UHGV virus genome: UHGV-0200643
Length of the DNA: 38,172 nt
Reading direction: 5' to 3' (one strand)
Source of the DNA: a virus
The position numbers and the translations under genes were made by a program. Under the pieces are notes generated by a model. It was not told the origin of the DNA and did not search any database. It worked only from the letters and a program-made list of their open reading frames with translations. The number at the start of each line of letters is the position of its first letter. Within the stretch, counting starts at the first letter, position 1. Shown here piece by piece: positions 3,023 through 29,354 of the stretch.

Positions 3023-4567
3023 ATGGGAGTATTCCAAACGATTAAAAGTATATTCAAGAGAGGAGTTGATAGCGTGAATATGAGTTTTACTGGTCGTGAT
3101 ATTGCGAAGGTAACAGATCATCCCAAAATAGGGATTGATTCAAGAGAATACGATCGGATTGCTAGAAACTTTAGATACTATTCCAATCTATTTCCTGATA
3201 TACAATATCGTAATTCATACGGGGAAACACAGAAAAGAGAATTTAAGTCCTTAAATATCACCAAGACAGCTTCTAGACGGTTAGCAAGTATCATCTTTAA
3301 TGAGAAGTGCAAAGTAGCATTAAAAGACAAGGAGGAGCAAGCAGAAGCTTCAAAAAGCATTCAATCAGCGGTAGAGTTCCTAGATAAAACACTTTATGAC
3401 AACAATTTCTACAATTTGTTTGAAATGAACCTTGAAAAAGGGATTGCTGCAGGCGGTTTTGCTATGCGGCCGTATGTTGACGGTGACAAGATCAAAATTT
3501 CATGGATCCGTGCAGATCAATTTTATCCGTTACGCTCTAACACAAATGAAGTAAGTGAATGCGCCATTGCAACAAAGACCATTCAAACAGAAGGTGACGT
3601 GAATTACTACTATACGTTGCTAGAATTCCATGAATGGCAAGATGATAAGTATGTTATCAGTAATGAGCTTTACAAATCTGATAACGATAATATCGTTGGT
3701 AAACAAATTTCATTAGCGGTTCTTTATCCTGATTTGGCTGAAACTGTCACATTAGAAGGTTTAAAGAGACCGCTTTTTGCGTATTTCAGAACACCTGGTG
3801 CGAATAACAAATCGTTAGAAAGTCCATTGGGCGCTGGTATTGTCGATAACTCAAAAGAGATTCTGGACACAATCAACACAACGCATGATCAATTTGCTTG
3901 GGAAATTCAGTTAGGTCAACGACGTGTTGTTGTTCCTGCAGAGTTTCTTAGAGTAGATCAATTGCGCCCGCCGCTGTTCGACACTGATCAGAATGTTTTT
4001 GCTGGTGTGTATGGTGCTGAAAATATCGGGGTTAAGGATATCACTACACCAATTCGGACGGTTCAATATAAGGATGCTATTAGTCATTTGATCAAAGAGT
4101 TTGAGGTGCAAGTTGGTTTATCTGTTGGCTCAATGAACTATGCAGACGATGGAATTAAAACAGCAACAGAAATTGTTTCTAACAATTCCATGACGTATCA
4201 AACCCGTTCAAGCTATTTAACGATGGTTGAAAAAGTTATTAACGAACTAATCCATTCTATTTTTGAGTTAGCAGGATATGGAGAAATGTTCGAAAGTGAA
4301 AAGCCTCTGTTCTCGATTGATTATGAGAGTTATTTAGTCACAGTGAGCTTTGAAGACGGTCTATTCGTTGATCGTAACAAACAACTAGAGAATGATTTAA
4401 AAGCTGTAACAGCTGGCGTAATGCCAAAGAAACAATTTCTTATCCGCAATTACAATTTAAACGAAGATGAATTAGAAGATTGGTTAGCTGCATTGAAAGA
4501 AGAAATGCCCGAAGCGGGATCAACCGAACGGCGTAGTCAAGATGCCTTATTCGATTTAGGTGATTAA
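3023..4567 (+). CDS. Portal protein (SPP1 gp6-like)
   Basis: About 514 aa, directly after terL, of the size and position expected for a portal. The start is probably ATG 3023 with AGGTGAG RBS; the track ORF begins at 3008. Confidence 0.8.
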   Translation: MGVFQTIKSIFKRGVDSVNMSFTGRDIAKVTDHPKIGIDSREYDRIARNFRYYSNLFPDIQYRNSYGETQKREFKSLNITKTASRRLASIIFNEKCKVALKDKEEQAEASKSIQSAVEFLDKTLYDNNFYNLFEMNLEKGIAAGGFAMRPYVDGDKIKISWIRADQFYPLRSNTNEVSECAIATKTIQTEGDVNYYYTLLEFHEWQDDKYVISNELYKSDNDNIVGKQISLAVLYPDLAETVTLEGLKRPLFAYFRTPGANNKSLESPLGAGIVDNSKEILDTINTTHDQFAWEIQLGQRRVVVPAEFLRVDQLRPPLFDTDQNVFAGVYGAENIGVKDITTPIRTVQYKDAISHLIKEFEVQVGLSVGSMNYADDGIKTATEIVSNNSMTYQTRSSYLTMVEKVINELIHSIFELAGYGEMFESEKPLFSIDYESYLVTVSFEDGLFVDRNKQLENDLKAVTAGVMPKKQFLIRNYNLNEDELEDWLAALKEEMPEAGSTERRSQDALFDLGD

Positions 4568-4569
4568 TT

Positions 4570-5706
4570 ATGATTACACCAGAAAAGATGCAAAAGACTG
4601 CGAATTCAATTATTAATATCTATTCAGAACTGGAAGACCGAATCTTTAACATCATAATCAAAGCGTTAAAACAGTCTCGTTTTCAAGATGTTGCAAAAGA
4701 AGACGTGCTTTTGTGGCAAGTAAAACAACTTTCTAAGATGGGTACATTAAACGATAAAGTTATTGATTTGTTAGCACGATATACAGGAGAGACTCAAGAA
4801 GCAATTGAGCAATTGATTAAGGGAAACGGTGTGAAGATCGTTGATGAAGTAGACCGTGAGCTTGAGCGAATGGTTCGTAAAAGCATTCCAGTCTCTGACG
4901 ATGTAGGAAAGATAATTGATTCTTTAATACGTCAAACTTTCCAAGACTTAAACAACAACGTCAATCAAACATTAATCACCACTAATTTCAATGAGAATAC
5001 AGTTATGCGAGCCTATCAAGCAATTCTTAAACAATCTACCCTAGAATCCATGACGGGTCTTAAAACGCATGAGAAGGCTGTAAAAGATAATGTCTATAAA
5101 ATGGTAGACATGGGAATTAAATCAGGTTTTGTCGATAAAGCTGGTCGTGAGTGGTCAATGGAGGCATACTCTCGAACCGTCGTTCAAACTACGTCACACA
5201 GAACATTCAACGATTTACGATTGCAACGAATGGAAGACTTTGACTGTGTGACTGCATTAATGAGTAGTCATCCAACAGCTAGAGAAGCGTGTGCGCCGAT
5301 ACAAGGTGATTGGGTATTAACTGTGCCGAAAAATGAAGCGCCAGACGAGTTCAAACATTTACCATCTATTTATGATCATGGATATGGCGAACCCAGTGGA
5401 ACGCAAGGAATTAATTGCACACACATTCTTTACCCCGGGAGACCTGATGTGAATACAAATAATCAACCGCAATATGACCCAGAAAAAGCACAAGAAAATG
5501 CTGAAATACAACAAAAACAGCGTAAGCTTGAGCGTGATATTCGCTATCAGAAGAAACGTATGAATGCGGCGGTAGAATTGGAGGATCCCGATACTGTACA
5601 AATGTGTAAGCAAGTTATTTCTAACAAGCAGAAACAGTTAAGAGAACTTATTGAAGACAACGAGTTCTTGGTACGTGATTACAGTAGGGAACAAATACAA
5701 AGTTAA
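4570..5706 (+). CDS. Minor capsid / head morphogenesis protein (SPP1 gp7 / Mu F-like)
   Basis: 378 aa following the portal. Position and size fit. The C-terminus is basic and coiled-coil. Confidence 0.65.
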   Translation: MITPEKMQKTANSIINIYSELEDRIFNIIIKALKQSRFQDVAKEDVLLWQVKQLSKMGTLNDKVIDLLARYTGETQEAIEQLIKGNGVKIVDEVDRELERMVRKSIPVSDDVGKIIDSLIRQTFQDLNNNVNQTLITTNFNENTVMRAYQAILKQSTLESMTGLKTHEKAVKDNVYKMVDMGIKSGFVDKAGREWSMEAYSRTVVQTTSHRTFNDLRLQRMEDFDCVTALMSSHPTAREACAPIQGDWVLTVPKNEAPDEFKHLPSIYDHGYGEPSGTQGINCTHILYPGRPDVNTNNQPQYDPEKAQENAEIQQKQRKLERDIRYQKKRMNAAVELEDPDTVQMCKQVISNKQKQLRELIEDNEFLVRDYSREQIQS

Positions 5707-23638: not shown

Positions 23639-23668
23639 AAAAGCCCGAATGATCAGGCTTTCATCATT
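23639..23668 (-). terminator. Intrinsic terminator for the minus-strand gene 23653..23907
   Basis: On the minus strand this reads AGCCTGATCATTCGGGCT followed by TTTTTTATTTTTG. Confidence 0.5.
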
Positions 23669-23907
23669 TCAAATTCCATCATAATTTTCGTCTTTCCGAT
23701 TACCGCATATTTCTTCACAATGAACTGTTTCCTACTATTATATAAACCAGCAACAACTACATGCATGCCGTCTTCTACGTCAGCTAAAAAATTCAACGAG
23801 TGACCAGCAATCAAACAGCTAGTATCATCAAGCTTAAAATAGACGAGGGGACGTTCAGAATACTCTAATATTTTAACTTTGCTAACTAAACCTGTCATTG
23901 ACTCCAT
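23653..23907 (-). CDS. Small (84 aa) hypothetical protein under a LexA-box promoter
   Basis: ATG at 23907 has RBS GAGGAG 8 nt upstream. The track ORF starts at the TTG at 23922. A promoter with an embedded Cheo box lies directly upstream. Confidence 0.5.
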   Translation of the reverse strand: MESMTGLVSKVKILEYSERPLVYFKLDDTSCLIAGHSLNFLADVEDGMHVVVAGLYNSRKQFIVKKYAVIGKTKIMMEFEMMKA

Positions 23908-23935
23908 GCGATCACTCCTCAATTTTGTTAATTAT

Positions 23936-23964
23936 ATTATACGAACAAATGTTCGATAAGTAAA
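23936..23964 (-). promoter_or_regulatory. Sigma-A-type promoter (-35 TTTACT, 17-nt spacer, -10 TATAAT) with an embedded LexA/Cheo box CGAACAAATGTTCG (23942-23955)
   Basis: The minus strand reads TTTACT-TATCGAACATTTGTTCG-TATAAT. This is a perfect match to the Firmicutes LexA consensus CGAAC-N4-GTTCG. Confidence 0.55.
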
Positions 23965-23986
23965 GCATGAAAGATAGATATTTGAT

Positions 23987-24006
23987 GGTGATAGCACTGG
24001 TGATAG
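23987..24006 (+). repeat. attP arm-type repeats, left set (2 x GGTGATAG)
   Basis: GGTGATAG at 23987-23994 and 23999-24006. The second copy is ACTGGTGATAGTGAA. Confidence 0.5.
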
Positions 24007-24215
24007 TGAATAGTTTTTTGTGCATTCTATGAAGGTTTAATTTAGGGATAAAACCTTGATATAATGCGATTCTTTCTTCAATAAAATTAATGAATCAAGG
24101 TTTACGAACAAAAAGAATATGTTCGCTTTGCTTGGAAAACCAGGATTTGAAGATTTAGCAAAAGAATTAAACGATCGTTTATAAATCGCTGTTTCTAGCA
24201 GATTTAATAACGACT

Positions 24216-24269
24216 GGTGATAGAAACATGTTTGCTTCATCTGTTTTTTGGTGATAGAAAAGGTGATAG
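24216..24269 (+). repeat. attP arm-type repeats, right set (3 x GGTGATAG)
   Basis: GGTGATAG at 24216-24223, 24250-24257 and 24262-24269, immediately upstream of the integrase 3' end. Confidence 0.5.
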
Positions 24270-24290
24270 TGAACTTGAAAAAGCACTCAA

Positions 24291-25508
24291 TTACGAGTGC
24301 TTTTTCTTTTGCTCTTCAAGATAATCTTCGAACTTTTTCATCGATCGTTCTTTCACTTCTGGAGTGACCGAAGCATAAATTTGAGTAGTAGAAATATCCT
24401 TATGACCTAACAAATCTTTTATGTCATCTAAATCCACCCCAGCTTGTCTCATCCGAATAGCATAAGTGTGTCGGCCATCATGTATTTTAATGTGCTTTAG
24501 TTTTGCTCGTTTTGCGATGCGGGCAGAAGCGCCATTTACCGAACGATTACGGACGATTTTTCCTTTTGATTTGCTTGTCGTATAAATAAAGATATAATCA
24601 GAGTTTGTTTTTTGTAATGGTGTGATCCCAATCTGATCATAGAAGTATTTATAAAATTCCAGCAGCGCAAATTTTGTCCGCTGTGTAATCGGCAAATCAC
24701 GTTCACCAGCGGGAGTCTTAGGGTCGTCAATGATGATTGCATCTTTATTTTCGCCAGTTTCTGCTCGATACAAACGTTCACGTTCGATATTGACAAAGTT
24801 AGAAGAGAAATCAAAGTCTGACCAACGTAGTGCCATAACCTCAGCTTTCCTCAATCCACAATCAAATATCAGTAAAAAGAAGGGATACCAAAACGGTTCC
24901 TTTTCGTTCTTTGCTGACTCAAAAAATTGATTAACTTCATCAGAACTGTAGTGTGGTGGAATCTTTGGTCCCTTAGGAGCTAACGGGAATTCAACATATT
25001 GTGCAGGATTATCTTTTACATAGCCTAACTGGATTGCTTTTCTATATGCGCTTGATAGAGTTGCATTAACTGTTTTAACTGTATTAAACGATAACCCTTT
25101 TTTGCTCCGACCTTTTCCATCAAGAGAAAATAGCTTGTTGATAAATTTTTGGTGATCAGCCCTAGAATAGTTAGTTAAGCGATGTTTGCCGATGTAAGGA
25201 TTGATATACATCCTGATATTTTCTCGGTGAACGATACGAGTACCTTCTTTTACTTTCAATTTGTATTCAGTAATCCATACCTTTAAAAATTGTTCAATTG
25301 TCATATATTTAACATCATTTTTTTGATAATCACCTTTTGCAATTTCACCTTCAGTTATTTTTGCATAGTTGTTTGCTTCATCCCAAGATCTAAAACCTTT
25401 TTTGTGGATTTTATTTTGCCGCTTGGTCCCAGGATCGATACCATTCGAGATAAAGACCTCATATCTAAGTTCGCCACTTTTTAAGTTGTATGGTTTTATA
25501 GATGCCAT
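24291..25508 (-). CDS. int: Tyrosine integrase (phage integrase family)
   Basis: 405 aa. N-terminal SAM-like/arm-binding region. C-terminal catalytic motifs: R...HDGRHTYAIRMRQAG...LLGHKDISTTQIYASV (R-H-R-Y). Confidence 0.9.
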   Translation of the reverse strand: MASIKPYNLKSGELRYEVFISNGIDPGTKRQNKIHKKGFRSWDEANNYAKITEGEIAKGDYQKNDVKYMTIEQFLKVWITEYKLKVKEGTRIVHRENIRMYINPYIGKHRLTNYSRADHQKFINKLFSLDGKGRSKKGLSFNTVKTVNATLSSAYRKAIQLGYVKDNPAQYVEFPLAPKGPKIPPHYSSDEVNQFFESAKNEKEPFWYPFFLLIFDCGLRKAEVMALRWSDFDFSSNFVNIERERLYRAETGENKDAIIIDDPKTPAGERDLPITQRTKFALLEFYKYFYDQIGITPLQKTNSDYIFIYTTSKSKGKIVRNRSVNGASARIAKRAKLKHIKIHDGRHTYAIRMRQAGVDLDDIKDLLGHKDISTTQIYASVTPEVKERSMKKFEDYLEEQKKKHS

Positions 25509-25614
25509 AAAATCATTCCTTTCGGATTATTTAGAGAAAAATTCATAAATGTCCGTATTCAATACGCACAATACTTCTAATTAGGACTTTAATCGTATTA
25601 TTGTCACTTTAATT

Positions 25615-25628
25615 CGAACTTATGTTCG
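25615..25628 (+). promoter_or_regulatory. Second LexA/Cheo box CGAACTTATGTTCG upstream of int
   Basis: Perfect CGAAC-N4-GTTCG, about 107 bp upstream of the int start codon on the minus strand and downstream of the terminator at 25631-25660. Confidence 0.45.
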
Positions 25629-25630
25629 TT

Positions 25631-25660
25631 TGAGGGTTAAAAAGAAAAGCCCGAAGGCTA
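25631..25660 (-). terminator. Intrinsic terminator (minus strand) after the small ORF 25668..25820
   Basis: On the minus strand this reads AGCCTTCGGGCT followed by TTTCTTTTTAA. Confidence 0.5.
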
Positions 25661-25667
25661 ATCTTAA

Positions 25668-25820
25668 TCTTTTTCTCGTAAGACTTTTTCAATGTCTTTT
25701 TTCGCTTGCACGTAGTAGTTAGCTACTTGCTTGGCAGATTTGTGATCTAAGTCCACTTTTTCCAAATAAATGATCGCTACATCGTGAGCCGCTTTTCTAA
25801 TTTCTTCATCTGACATTTCG
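25668..25820 (-). CDS. Small 50-aa ORF (MSDEEIRKAAHDVAIIYLEKVDLDHKSAKQVANYYVQAKKDIEKVLREKD)
   Basis: Followed by a terminator. Missing from the ORF track because it is under 60 aa. A credible coding periodicity. Confidence 0.35.
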
Positions 25821-25890
25821 ATTCACCTTCTTTCAGATGGATATCAAACAATTCCTATTGATTAAAAAACTGTAGGATGATAATTTAACA

Positions 25891-26940
25891 TTATTTAAGT
25901 TCTATATAACCGTTATTAGTCCACCAGTCTGAATCATTAGATTTACCAGCATTTCCTATTTTCGTTTTAGTCTTTCCCTTAGATTCATTGAGTAAACTAT
26001 TTTGAATCATGTAGCCGTCCGATGCTGAATATAGAACAGTTCCATCAGAAGAGATTTGGTCGCTCCAATTAGCAAAATTTATCGAGTCGAGCGTCTGTTT
26101 TGTAAAAAATGTACTAATCGCTAAACCTTCTGATTCGTTACCTTTGTCATCAGTAAATGTTGTCGTCAATTGAATGATGATACTTTCGAATGGGGTGCCT
26201 TGTAGATTTTCTAAAATTTTTTCAACATCTTTGGGATAGGTAACTGCAACCAAAGAGTCGGCATTCCAAAAGGACTCGATTGGATAACTAATAATGACAT
26301 TGCTCCCTTCAATTTTAGTTTTATAATCGGAAACATCAGACTCACTCAATGCACTAGCTAAGATGTTTTCAGGCTTGCTTTCTTCAGTCTCATTTATTTT
26401 CTGGCGTTCGTCTGATTGATTATAAACTTCAACATTATAGGTTTCTGATACGTTTTCATTTGTTTCGGCTACAAGATCATAATAAATGAAATCTACTGTA
26501 GAAGGTAAAGTAACATAAAAATGAAATATTCCTTTTGAATCTGCAGTAGTTCGTATTTCTTTCAGAGAAACGTCATTACGTTCATTAGGTTTCAATTCAA
26601 CTTTGGCATTTTTTTTAGTTTTACCAACAATATCAGCTTTTCCATTTTTATCAGAGTCATATCCAAAATGATCAGAATACATAAACTTGTCGCTCACACT
26701 GATTTTTAAGGGTTCGTTTGCTTCGGTAGGATCAGAAGTCTTTTCAGTCGTTCCAGAGTTCGGTGATAACGAGAAAGCAAAAATAGAAACTACTAGAACG
26801 AGTAAGGAAATACCAATAACTATTAGTCCATTTTTTTTACCGTCTTTAGCAGTTAGTTTTTTTAAGCTAGGAAGCATTATAACGCCAGAAATAAAGCCGA
26901 TAATCGACAAACACATTAAAATTACAAAAAAAGATTGCAT
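25891..26940 (-). CDS. Membrane-anchored surface protein (2 N-terminal TM segments plus large extracytoplasmic domain), candidate superinfection exclusion protein
   Basis: TM helices FFVILMCLSIIGFISGVIML and LIVIGISLLVLVVSIFAFSL. AT-rich. Located between int and the repressor. The ATG at 26940 has RBS GGGGGAA; the track ORF starts at 26955. Confidence 0.5.
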   Translation of the reverse strand: MQSFFVILMCLSIIGFISGVIMLPSLKKLTAKDGKKNGLIVIGISLLVLVVSIFAFSLSPNSGTTEKTSDPTEANEPLKISVSDKFMYSDHFGYDSDKNGKADIVGKTKKNAKVELKPNERNDVSLKEIRTTADSKGIFHFYVTLPSTVDFIYYDLVAETNENVSETYNVEVYNQSDERQKINETEESKPENILASALSESDVSDYKTKIEGSNVIISYPIESFWNADSLVAVTYPKDVEKILENLQGTPFESIIIQLTTTFTDDKGNESEGLAISTFFTKQTLDSINFANWSDQISSDGTVLYSASDGYMIQNSLLNESKGKTKTKIGNAGKSNDSDWWTNNGYIELK

Positions 26941-27009
26941 CAACATTTCCCCCACAATAATAATTTTAAACTCCCACTTAATGGCAGGTAGTTTTAGTCG
27001 CCAGTATTT

Positions 27010-27414
27010 TTACCCATACGATTCTTGATACGCATATTCGAAAGCGATTTCTTTTATTAAGTCTTGATAACTCATATCTAAATTATTTTGTTCTATAAAC
27101 TGCATAAAATTGAACTCATGTATATCTATATCAAGAAGTGATATATAAATTCTTACAAGTTCAGTTATCATAAAACAATCAGCTTGATATTCCATTTTTG
27201 AATGAAATCTCCCGATTTTATAAATTTCTTTTAAGTCATCATGTAAAACTCCATGACCAGCTTCGTGTAAAATCACTTTAATCTTTTCGAAATCGTTTAA
27301 TCCCTTGCAGACAAACATTGTTTTTACTTCTGATATATAACAACCAGGTTTATCTAAATCAAATAATTTTAAAGTAATTCCATATTTTTCGAGAAGCGCT
27401 TCAACTTCCTTCAT
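27010..27414 (-). CDS. ImmA/IrrE-family metallopeptidase (anti-repressor protease)
   Basis: HEXXH motif (ILHEAGHGVLHDD). Its stop lies immediately downstream of the XRE repressor, the typical ImmR-ImmA arrangement. Confidence 0.75.
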   Translation of the reverse strand: MKEVEALLEKYGITLKLFDLDKPGCYISEVKTMFVCKGLNDFEKIKVILHEAGHGVLHDDLKEIYKIGRFHSKMEYQADCFMITELVRIYISLLDIDIHEFNFMQFIEQNNLDMSYQDLIKEIAFEYAYQESYG

Positions 27415-27428
27415 GTCAGCACTCCTCT

Positions 27429-27788
27429 TTATTTTCCATACTTTCCCTTTAGGTATGCACGAATAATTTCTCGATCATGATCTGTTATTGGTTCGCCGTC
27501 AAAACTCATAGCGCTGTCTAACATTTTATCAAGATCGGTATCTGTAGGTTTGTCCTTAACCGACGAAGAAGTACCATCAGCAAGATAATCAACACTTACA
27601 TTATAAATAGAAGCTAAGTCTTTTAAAGATTGTAAATCTGGTTCTCTCGTTCCGTACTCCCAATTAGCATAAGTAGCCATATTTTTTAAACCTAACTTGT
27701 TTGCCACTAATGTTTTTGTCCATCCGTTCTGTTCCCTTAACGATTCAAGACGTTTTGCTAGGGATGATCTATCATCAGACAATTTCAT
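27429..27788 (-). CDS. XRE-family HTH repressor (cI/ImmR-like)
   Basis: N-terminal HTH (LREQNGWTKTLVANKLGLKNMATYANWEYG). Transcribed divergently from the cro-like gene. Confidence 0.75.
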   Translation of the reverse strand: MKLSDDRSSLAKRLESLREQNGWTKTLVANKLGLKNMATYANWEYGTREPDLQSLKDLASIYNVSVDYLADGTSSSVKDKPTDTDLDKMLDSAMSFDGEPITDHDREIIRAYLKGKYGK

Positions 27789-27866
27789 TTAATCACCTCG
27801 TTTAATTTATTATAAATCATTTAAACCATATATTTAAAAAAATAAACAAAAAGTATAACAAAACCC

Positions 27867-27895
27867 TTGACTTAAACTAAATGTTTAAGTATACT
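27867..27895 (+). promoter_or_regulatory. Early rightward promoter (-35 TTGACT, 17-bp spacer, -10 TATACT) overlapping inverted operator repeats
   Basis: TTGACT at 27867-27872 and TATACT at 27890-27895. The inverted repeats TTAAACTAAA and TTTAGTTTAA flank and overlap the promoter. Confidence 0.55.
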
Positions 27896-27942
27896 TAATT
27901 CATAAGTTAAACGTTTAGTTTAATAGGAAGGAGTTGATTTGC

Positions 27943-28539: not shown

Positions 28540-29073
28540 ATGATGCGAGTCGCTTTAAAAAGTGAATTAGATGCTTTGCTGATACGAAGAAATCTTTCGC
28601 AAAAAGAAGTCGCTAAAGAAAGCAACATTCCATTTTCAACATTGAATGGTTACACGAAAGGAACGCAAGAAGTTCCAGTTAATAAAGCTATAGATATTAA
28701 TAACGCTGTCGGAGATGACGTGTTTGCATCAGGTATTAGTAATAAGTATTTAGGTACTTTGAAAGCCTTAGATGGAAAAGTGTCAGAGGTTCTAACACCA
28801 ACGGAATTAGATTTTTTACAAGACCAAGAAACAATTCAGCGTGAGGAAAGAAGAGAACAAGCTAAAAGGTTGCTAATTAAATCGAAGCTTGAACCGCTAA
28901 ATGATCAAGACAAAGAAGACTTAGAAAAATACGTAATGGAATTTTTAGATGAAATAGTCGTTGAACTTTCTATCGTGTTTTCAATACTTAAGATTCTTAG
29001 AATGACAATCACTGAAGCTTTTTCCAAACGGATGCCACATTGGGTGACTAAAAAGTATATGAAAGGTGAATGA
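28540..29073 (+). CDS. HTH (XRE-like) DNA-binding protein of the early region
   Basis: N-terminal HTH (LSQKEVAKESNIPFSTLNGYTKG). RBS AAGGAGGG. Confidence 0.45.
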   Translation: MMRVALKSELDALLIRRNLSQKEVAKESNIPFSTLNGYTKGTQEVPVNKAIDINNAVGDDVFASGISNKYLGTLKALDGKVSEVLTPTELDFLQDQETIQREERREQAKRLLIKSKLEPLNDQDKEDLEKYVMEFLDEIVVELSIVFSILKILRMTITEAFSKRMPHWVTKKYMKGE

Positions 29074-29075
29074 AT

Positions 29076-29354
29076 ATGATTATTGAAAAACCTAAAGTAG
29101 TTCAGTTTAGAAATGAAAAAATCCAAGCTAAAAAGAACTATCCAGAAATGATTAGTCGATCAGAGTTAGCTAGACGATGGGGAGTATCAATCGGAACTAT
29201 CAAAAATTGGACAGATAGACCTTATGACCCGCTTCCTATGGAAATGACTTCACCAACACGAATCGGAACTAAAGAAGTCGTTAGAATCCCGTTCGAGCTC
29301 GCTGTCGAGTGGAAGGAACGCAATACGAACAGAAACTATGAGGTGAAAGCATGA
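29076..29354 (+). CDS. Small HTH DNA-binding protein (excisionase/MerR-like helix)
   Basis: SRSELARRWGVSIGTIKNW is an HTH-like segment. Confidence 0.4.
   Translation: MIIEKPKVVQFRNEKIQAKKNYPEMISRSELARRWGVSIGTIKNWTDRPYDPLPMEMTSPTRIGTKEVVRIPFELAVEWKERNTNRNYEVKA

Follow-up and report, generated by a model that had tools for sequence, protein, structure and literature searches.

The integrase locus

The 38,172-nucleotide (nt) virus genome UHGV-0200643, here called the window, is a complete temperate siphophage genome in which a site of the LexA operator type lies a short distance upstream of the integrase gene int. On the plus strand, terminase, tail and lysin genes follow one another to approximately 22.5 kb; then come a minus-strand lysogeny module and plus-strand early genes. 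The minus-strand order is immR, immA, ORF354, ORF50, a hairpin with a T-run, the LexA-type box and int (ORF, open reading frame). The features are as follows.

27429-27788, minus strand: immR, with an HTH_3 domain (HTH, helix-turn-helix)
27010-27414, minus strand: immA, with a Peptidase_M78 domain
25891-26955, minus strand: ORF354, cargo gene in an operon with immR and immA
25664-25816, minus strand: ORF50, 50 amino acids (aa), last ORF of the immR-immA-cargo operon, ending in the hairpin
25664-27788, minus strand: the co-directional operon upstream of int (immR, immA, ORF354, ORF50)
25639-25665, minus strand: intrinsic, bidirectional-looking terminator or attenuator (stem AAGA..AGCC, loop UUCG, stem GGCU..UCUU, U-run), overlapping the ORF50 stop codon
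25629-25638, minus strand: linker from T-run to box, AACCCTCAAA, 10 nt; its sequence varies among loci, its length does not
25615-25628: LexA-type (Cheo/SOS) box, CGAACTTATGTTCG; the minus strand reads CGAACATAAGTTCG, with flanks CAAA-CGAAC-ATAA-GTTCG-AAT
25509-25614, minus strand: int leader, 106 nt, with T(A/T)CGA islands AATAATACGA (25602-25593) and AATAATCCGA (25531-25522)
24291-25508, minus strand: int, tyrosine integrase of 405 aa (Pfam Phage_integrase, E 3.6e-26, SAM_3 and Arm-DNA-bind_4; phrog_1, E 7e-73)

The box agrees with the Firmicute LexA operator at all 10 specified bases of CGAAC-N4-GTTCG (CGAACNNNNGTTCG) and has an A/T-rich spacer, ATAA. The consensus is established for Bacillus subtilis, where the optimum is CGAACATATGTTCG; CGAACATAAGTTCG differs from it by one spacer base. 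There are two perfect sites in the window, compared with 0.01 expected from dinucleotide shuffles, and none of 100 shuffles contained two or more. Pattern search and shuffles thus confirm the original prediction of a perfect site at this position, and the prediction also placed the box, the ORF50 terminator and the int start correctly with respect to one another. The box begins 10 nt past the T-run and ends 106 nt ahead of the int ATG at 25508, with the ribosome-binding site (RBS) AAAGGAA at 25522-25516. The second perfect site, box 1, lies on the other side of int and serves below as a contrast.

The hairpin, AAGA-UU-AGCC(UUCG)GGCU-UU-UCUU, extends from 25665 to 25642, and its U-run, UUUUCUUUUU, to 25639. 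The predicted folding energy is -9.7 kcal/mol. It contains G and C, runs straight into the U-run and closes a gene co-directional with int, as expected of an intrinsic terminator. A consensus terminator scan of the window left this hairpin unflagged, because the stem has an internal loop. As the stem is both short and interrupted, the predicted terminator is probably leaky.

The lysogeny region has the ImmR/ImmA layout of the ICEBs1 type: an HTH_3 gene with an adjacent Peptidase_M78 gene, a cro-like gene divergent from immR (at 27934) and int downstream on the same strand. A candidate immR promoter, PimmR, reads TTTAAA-18-TATAAT. Three 17-base-pair (bp) palindromes, TTAAAC-N5-GTTTAA, are found between immR and cro (27821-27837, 27872-27888 and 27907-27923), where they overlap Pcro (TTGACT-17-TATACT) and the PimmR candidate and probably serve ImmR and Cro as operators.

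The host is almost certainly an Enterococcus, judging by the integrase protein, which is closest to prophage integrases of E. malodoratus and E. dongliensis (83-88% identity) and next to those of Enterococcus phage EG-TP1 and a human faecal contig (59-60%). Megablast against GenBank phages gave no match for this region of the window or for the commonest variant of the terminator-box unit described below. Relatives were therefore located through the integrase protein and DNA patterns.

The terminator-box unit in related phages

Is the arrangement peculiar to the window? Four loci were chosen by integrase similarity alone: two Enterococcus prophages (L001 and L002), EG-TP1 (L006) and the faecal contig (L007). 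All four have kept the hairpin, the T-run, a linker of approximately 10 nt and the box, which has one mismatch in each; the flanks have diverged. A pattern limited to hairpin plus T-run (AGCCTTNNGGCTTTTCTTTT) was then run against the IMG/VR database, which kept the box out of the selection. The pattern matched 132 times, and 106 of these matches are followed by a box with no more than two mismatches to the 10 specified bases, always at an offset of 9-12 nt after the pattern. Counted as elements, approximately 127 hairpin and T-run pairs are present in IMG/VR, and a palindrome GAAC-N4-(G/A)TT(C/T) lies 9-11 nt past the T-run in about 85% of them. The distance from the end of the T-run to the start of the box is 9-10 nt in 83 of 96 unique contexts. 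Unrelated hairpin sequences (GCCTTTTAAGGC, GGCTTAACAGCC and GCCCCTTCACGGGC) retain the same arrangement of hairpin, spacer and box.

A non-redundant profile of 51 sequence classes reads AAA(A/C)GAAC-ATA(C/A)-(G/A)TT(C/T)G-TAT, a near-palindromic 20-mer with a conserved ATA spacer, and the window box fits it. The left half-site and the spacer are better conserved than the right half-site. The reciprocal scan, with the box only, led back to these integrase loci, with variant hairpins, and found the identical 14-mer as well, as the spacer of textbook promoters in other phage contigs, e.g. TTGTTA-17-TATAAT.

The gene that follows the unit is an integrase gene, or a small ORF and then an integrase gene. 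These integrases belong to about 10 unrelated sequence families of both the tyrosine and the serine type. Tyrosine-type proteins encoded downstream begin MASIK.., MRGGVRKRGKRWYYY.., MNGHVRKIG.., MWIEELPNGK.., MAMIKQYKKK.., MSVKQDKK.. or MAEPKMIKKGKW.., and serine-type proteins begin MKRVALYMRVST, MKRAALYIRVST or, in A118, MKAAIYIRVST. Among cultured phages, BLAST matches to the element are found in phages of Enterococcus (phiEf11, EFC-1, IME197 and EG-TP1) and Listeria (A118, A006, vB_LmoS_188 and others), with two weak partial matches in a Bacillus phage outside these genera; no Streptococcus phage is among the matches.

The order HTH repressor, M78 protease, cargo, unit and int recurs in EG-TP1, A118, phiEf11, the largest class (L012) and L046. 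The pairing of an ImmR/ImmA switch with a LexA-type box before int, described in the original prediction as uncommon, is thus the normal layout in these Enterococcus and Listeria phages, and the window appears as an ordinary Enterococcus member of a widespread group. A tblastn search based on four ImmA sequences picked up the protease in no more than 38 of 110 loci; its sensitivity is low, as Pfam found the M78 domain in the main class that tblastn had scored as negative.

Several variants of the unit were seen. Box-less forms occur in L046 (5494-5543) and L029 (10206-10256). In L046 the hairpin and T-run are followed by AAGAAAGGAG and then by the int ATG; this looks like a deletion from the AAGAA of the box to an RBS-proximal CGAAAGGAG. 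In L002 (4793-4850) and L001 (approximately 4516-4570) a divergent small gene is inserted directly upstream of the hairpin; its extended -10 (TGGTATAAT) is perfect, and the palindrome after it, TTGGATGGTATATTTATCATCCAA, may be an operator. An ORF of 92-95 aa (M..PYELRERLKK..) lies between leader and int and overlaps the int start in L001 (4723-5001), L006 (4723-5001), L072 and L118; it is absent from the window.

Evidence for LexA and SOS control

Among the members of the SOS regulon of Listeria EGD-e (van der Veen et al., 2010; listed in Table S8 of PMC10794523) is lmo2332, the int gene of an A118-like prophage. In PMC10794523 its log2 value is 1.58 with mitomycin C and, in a sif mutant with constitutive SOS induction, 1.25, and the co-directional genes upstream are unmoved (lmo2329, 0.03; lmo2330, 0.49; lmo2331, 0.08). 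Because lmo2329-2331 do not respond, the SOS-responsive element must lie between lmo2331 and int. A second gene, lmo2271, tabulated there as a bacteriophage A118 protein, is also in the regulon (3.4 and 3.51), and lexA is lmo1302 (PMC10794523). By surface plasmon resonance, LexA of C. difficile binds GAAC-N4-GTTT/GTTC operators.

Direct LexA control of int, as originally proposed, is supported by the Firmicute operator sequence, by the kept position of the box ahead of int in relatives and by the presence of a Listeria prophage int in the LexA/RecA regulon; the parts of the proposal that concern a promoter at the box and an independent excision switch are not supported, as set out below. SOS control of int is already known in kind from that Listeria prophage. 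LexA probably binds the window box and makes int SOS-responsive, although for Enterococcus we infer the binding from the operator sequence.

Promoter searches at int and at box 1

If LexA acts at int as a classical repressor, a promoter should be found at the box. A position weight matrix (PWM) for sigma-A promoters gave a best score of 4.5 bits in the 181 nt upstream of int, compared with a median best score of 6.2 in shuffles. The claim that the box lies in the int promoter region thus finds no support in the window. In the canonical register, the hexamers around the box are ACCCTC and AATTAA. A consensus promoter scan returned nothing overlapping the box, and no recurrent promoter position was detected by PWM across 52 non-redundant leaders. 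Two further placements, with the hairpin arm as -35 (TTAGCC-16-TACACT) or the right half of the box as -10 (TACATT), were rejected as weak and not conserved. Box 1 presents the opposite picture. The candidates are:

25634-25606, minus strand: weak promoter candidate with the box as spacer, CTCAAA-17-TAAAGT, the best in-register pair (3.6 bits)
25607-25580, minus strand: weak promoter candidate, GTGACA-16-CCTAAT
25555-25526, minus strand: weak promoter candidate, CGGACA-18-AATAAT
23936-23964, minus strand: promoter with box 1 (23942-23955) in its 17-nt spacer, TTTACT-(TAT CGAACATTTGTTCG)-TATAAT (PWM 9.0)

The box 1 promoter reads into a small ORF, 23653-23922, which lies beyond the phage attachment site attP and has a probable start at ATG 23907 with the RBS GAGGAG. 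It has no Pfam or PHROG match. In the prophage its place would be the end away from int. A perfect box occupies the equivalent place in EG-TP1 (L006 6590), and Listeria lmo2271 and E. faecalis EF1489 look like counterparts of the box 1 gene. EF1489 is presumably the last gene of prophage pp3. Transcription start sites (TSSs) mapped in E. faecalis V583 place CGAACATACATTCG in the spacer of two strong promoters, those of EF1686 (TTTACA-17-TATAAT) and EF1489 (TAGACA-18-TATAAT). These two promoters and that of box 1 score 9-10.6 bits and share the same layout; EF1686 and EF1489 are putative LexA targets by their sequence.

A third site in the window, CGAACCGTCGTTCA (5173-5186), has one mismatch and an intact GAAC-N4-GTTC core, and lies within the structural-gene ORF 4570-5706. 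It is probably a chance match, as its spacer is G/C-rich and it has no promoter context.

Read-through, promoter or both?

What might a LexA operator do where no promoter is apparent? The interpretation that we consider likely is that host LexA acts as a gate at the entrance to int, the operator being one half of a portable terminator-spacer-box unit. That unit, whose sequence, conservation, fixed geometry and gene order are described above, would comprise about 45 bp, in which an intrinsic terminator that leaks is followed, after a constant 9-10 nt, by the LexA box. It would set int apart from the immR-immA-cargo operon, which is transcribed constitutively. As long as the lysogen is undamaged, the terminator would halt most transcription, and LexA, one helical turn downstream, would halt the remainder, i.e. 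polymerase that reads through the hairpin or that initiates at the weak promoter with the box as spacer. DNA damage would lead to RecA-stimulated LexA cleavage and raise int transcription a few-fold. Integrase would thereby be topped up just before ImmA-dependent cleavage of ImmR switches on the early operon with its excisionase candidate. The gate would be a tuning device and not an independent excision switch. That the induction would be specific to int is argued by analogy with the Listeria homologue.

Which RNA polymerase population would LexA block? Several observations suggest that transcripts from the repressor operon, reading through the hairpin, are what normally reaches int. The upstream gene runs in the same direction as int in 121 of 126 loci, the 28 short-leader loci all among them; the absence of a divergent upstream gene from these 28, with about one expected, has no statistical power. 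Box and RBS are directly adjacent in phiEf11, A118 and about 15 other classes, and these short-leader copies have no room for a -10 hexamer plus a transcribed RBS. In L046, which has no box, the 48-nt gap between cargo and int holds only the hairpin, T-run and RBS, and int can therefore be transcribed only through the hairpin. The lack of a promoter above chance and the tight spacing of terminator and box also favour read-through.

On present evidence it is rather doubtful that the box is a classical operator only, with an int promoter at the box that LexA occludes and a terminator that merely insulates int from the upstream operon. Under that explanation the short-leader copies and the L046 int, which has no promoter of any kind after its hairpin, are hard to accommodate, the -35 position falls within the variable linker, and the in-register hexamers in the window score below shuffled sequence, as given above. 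It nevertheless accounts for a TATAnT hexamer that abuts the box in many long leaders of the E. faecalis type (GTTCG-TATACT, -TATAAA and -TATGTT), a layout that matches the mapped EF1686 and EF1489 promoters and box 1 and that argues against pure read-through. In V583, the int of prophage pp4 has its own TSS and a 5' untranslated region (5'UTR) of 101 nt, a length similar to that of the leaders discussed here.

Both routes to int, read-through and its own promoter, may therefore exist, and LexA would block either. Should LexA act here, blocking of read-through has a chance not far short of even; occlusion of a promoter is a possibility of some weight, and operation of both at once is unlikely. 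More tentatively, LexA may function as a roadblock to elongating polymerase rather than as a promoter repressor, and the unit as a portable ‘SOS-gated attenuator’ that recombination would have brought ahead of at least 10 unrelated tyrosine and serine recombinase genes in phages of Enterococcus and Listeria. A LexA dimer 9-10 bp past the U-run would stall polymerase at the point where its active site lies over the U-tract of a weak terminator, and the roadblock would make a leaky attenuator tight until the SOS response removes LexA. The fixed spacing of 9-10 nt would make sense in terms of such roadblock-assisted termination.

A number of findings weigh against a LexA gate at int. The right half-site is degraded in many copies of the unit (ATTCG, GTTTG, ATTCC and, in A118, GTACG), for which weaker LexA binding is expected. 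In the PWM search the window box lies outside any recognisable sigma-A promoter, and among the V583 TSSs examined (Michaux, 2020) none is beside a box of this type. Four long-leader loci, including the window relative L002, have a divergent upstream gene and therefore need an int promoter of their own, a point that also speaks for the classical operator. A118 carries the unit in the corresponding place, just ahead of int, but the EGD-e prophage is A118-like and may not have exactly the A118 sequence; the int induction there is only two- to three-fold (PMC10794523). In Listeria phage phi10403S, mitomycin-induced excision is blocked by non-cleavable lexA3. With lexA3, however, ectopic RecA restores virions without induction of SOS genes, and excision in macrophages is even higher. 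From these lexA3 results, a LexA gate on int would be a modulator, and a dispensable one.

The int leader and mosaicism

The leader between box and int carries motifs of its own. In 14 leaders that are less than 70% identical, the CpG-containing T(A/T)CGA is enriched two-fold (48 compared with 24 expected). Counted from the end of the box, it occurs at +21 (10 of 14 leaders), approximately +50, +71 and +92, i.e. in 21-nt steps, and the +92 motif lies in the RBS context TACGAAAGGA. This spacing is kept in leaders ahead of different integrase families; in the window, AATAATACGA and AATAATCCGA are 71 nt apart. The motifs may be protein sites, promoter elements or recombination joints. As ImmR/Cro operators they were rejected, those operators being TTAAAC-N5-GTTTAA. 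No conserved 5'UTR RNA structure beyond the terminator hairpin was found by RNAalifold in 17 diverged leaders, and the int leader has no Rfam match.

Comparisons of the window with its relatives show mosaicism. Among the related leaders L076 and L103, that of L076 is identical to the window from GACAATAATACG to the int ATG, whereas about 12 of 40 positions differ across the linker, the box and the first 12 nt of the leader. With L002 only the last 40 nt or so are common. The breakpoints fall at T(A/T)CGA motifs, and the box is within consensus on both sides. The short leaders look like deletions between the TTCG of the box and the last, RBS-proximal T(A/T)CG-AAAGGA motif.

Do hairpin and palindrome serve mainly as a recombination linker for swaps of integrase cassettes, with LexA binding incidental? 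A unit of approximately 45 bp ahead of about 10 unrelated integrase families, the breakpoints inside the leader (window and L076; window and L002) and the apparent deletions in short leaders are all consistent with such a linker. A linker, however, has no need of a LexA consensus, a conserved spacer, a symmetric half-site or a fixed offset of 9-10 nt, and the box is retained with hairpins of differing sequence. Given also the int-specific SOS induction reported in Listeria, we regard the explanation as improbable, and the two roles are not mutually exclusive. It is more improbable still that the palindrome is bound by another conserved factor, or is part of a T(A/T)CGA array for an unknown protein: enrichment of this motif at fixed 21-nt steps in diverged leaders and the stronger conservation of left half-site and spacer would fit, but the phage's own ImmR/Cro operators are of another sequence, the identical 14-mer stands in SOS-type promoter contexts, short-leader copies keep the box without extra T(A/T)CGA motifs, and LexA is the one regulator in Enterococcus or Listeria known to us to have a GAAC-N4-GTTC site.

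Excision

The original prediction held that the box would couple excision to the SOS response independently of repressor cleavage. This is not supported by the position of the only excisionase candidate in the window:

29070-29354, plus strand: candidate excisionase gene of the early operon on the cro side, encoding a small HTH protein; phrog_66, ‘excisionase and transcriptional regulator’ (E 6e-4), a weak assignment

Its product is 31% identical (E 2e-7) to EG-TP1 gp20, which is annotated as an excisionase. As the candidate belongs to an operon repressed by ImmR, excision would not be independent of repressor cleavage, and extra integrase alone should not trigger it. The candidate is preceded by a second early regulator, an HTH protein of 177 aa (28540-29073; phrog_1124).

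Direct repeats of TGGTGATAG (e.g. TTGGTGATAGAAAAGGTGATAGTGAA) are present between int and box 1, at 23981-24010, 24215-24226 and 24244-24273. They look like integrase arm-type sites, which would put attP about 20-300 nt 3' of the int stop codon. This placement agrees with the host junction, approximately 100 nt after int in L001 and L002. The int leader was considered as attP and rejected, as the host junction in these two prophages and the arm-type repeats are all downstream of int.

Comparison with known systems

The closest known system is the A118-like comK prophage of Listeria EGD-e, which like the window has an HTH repressor, an M78 metalloprotease, cargo, a hairpin with T-run, about 10 nt, a GAAC-N4 palindrome and int. 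Its int is SOS-induced and its upstream neighbours are not. The second SOS-regulated gene of that prophage, lmo2271, would match box 1; judged by its locus-tag number, it is taken to lie at the prophage end opposite int. A118 has a serine recombinase, a 14-nt leader and the degraded right half-site GTACG; in the window, from a different host genus, the integrase is of the tyrosine type, the leader is 106 nt long and the box is perfect.

In ICEBs1 of B. subtilis, too, the genes for an HTH repressor and an M78 anti-repressor protease precede int and share its strand (Bose et al., 2008). Several copies of the terminator-box unit require, as in immR-immA-int of ICEBs1, that int be transcribed from the repressor operon. 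In the window, cargo genes and a putative SOS-gated attenuator are interposed; to our knowledge, ICEBs1 has no terminator plus LexA box between immA and int.

Phages that carry host SOS boxes, and whose transcription is altered by LexA cleavage, are exemplified by GIL01, with its P1 promoter and gp7 (PMC4551915), and by CTXphi, with rstA. In these, LexA is the main lysogeny repressor and acts at a lytic promoter. The lysis-lysogeny switch of the window is ImmR/ImmA, and predicted LexA contact is limited to int and one accessory gene.

In integrons the LexA box reportedly overlaps the intI promoter. There, a site-specific recombinase is under direct SOS control that is widely conserved (Guerin, 2009; Cambray, 2011; PMC3108266). 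In the window no integrase -10 or -35 scoring above chance overlaps the LexA box; LexA of the Gram-positive hosts recognises another motif, and the recombinase, a phage integrase, depends on an excisionase to excise. The likeness is thus an analogy of logic only.

Significance

A compact terminator-operator unit common to many unrelated integrases gives a handle on int expression in ImmR/ImmA phages, which is poorly defined. If the proposal is right, temperate phages of two important Gram-positive pathogens would pre-load integrase in the first minutes after DNA damage, before proteolysis of the repressor, which is slower. Excision would then be timed differently with respect to replication and packaging, with effects on lateral transduction and on loss of prophages. 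The unit could also provide a first example of LexA action via transcription termination.

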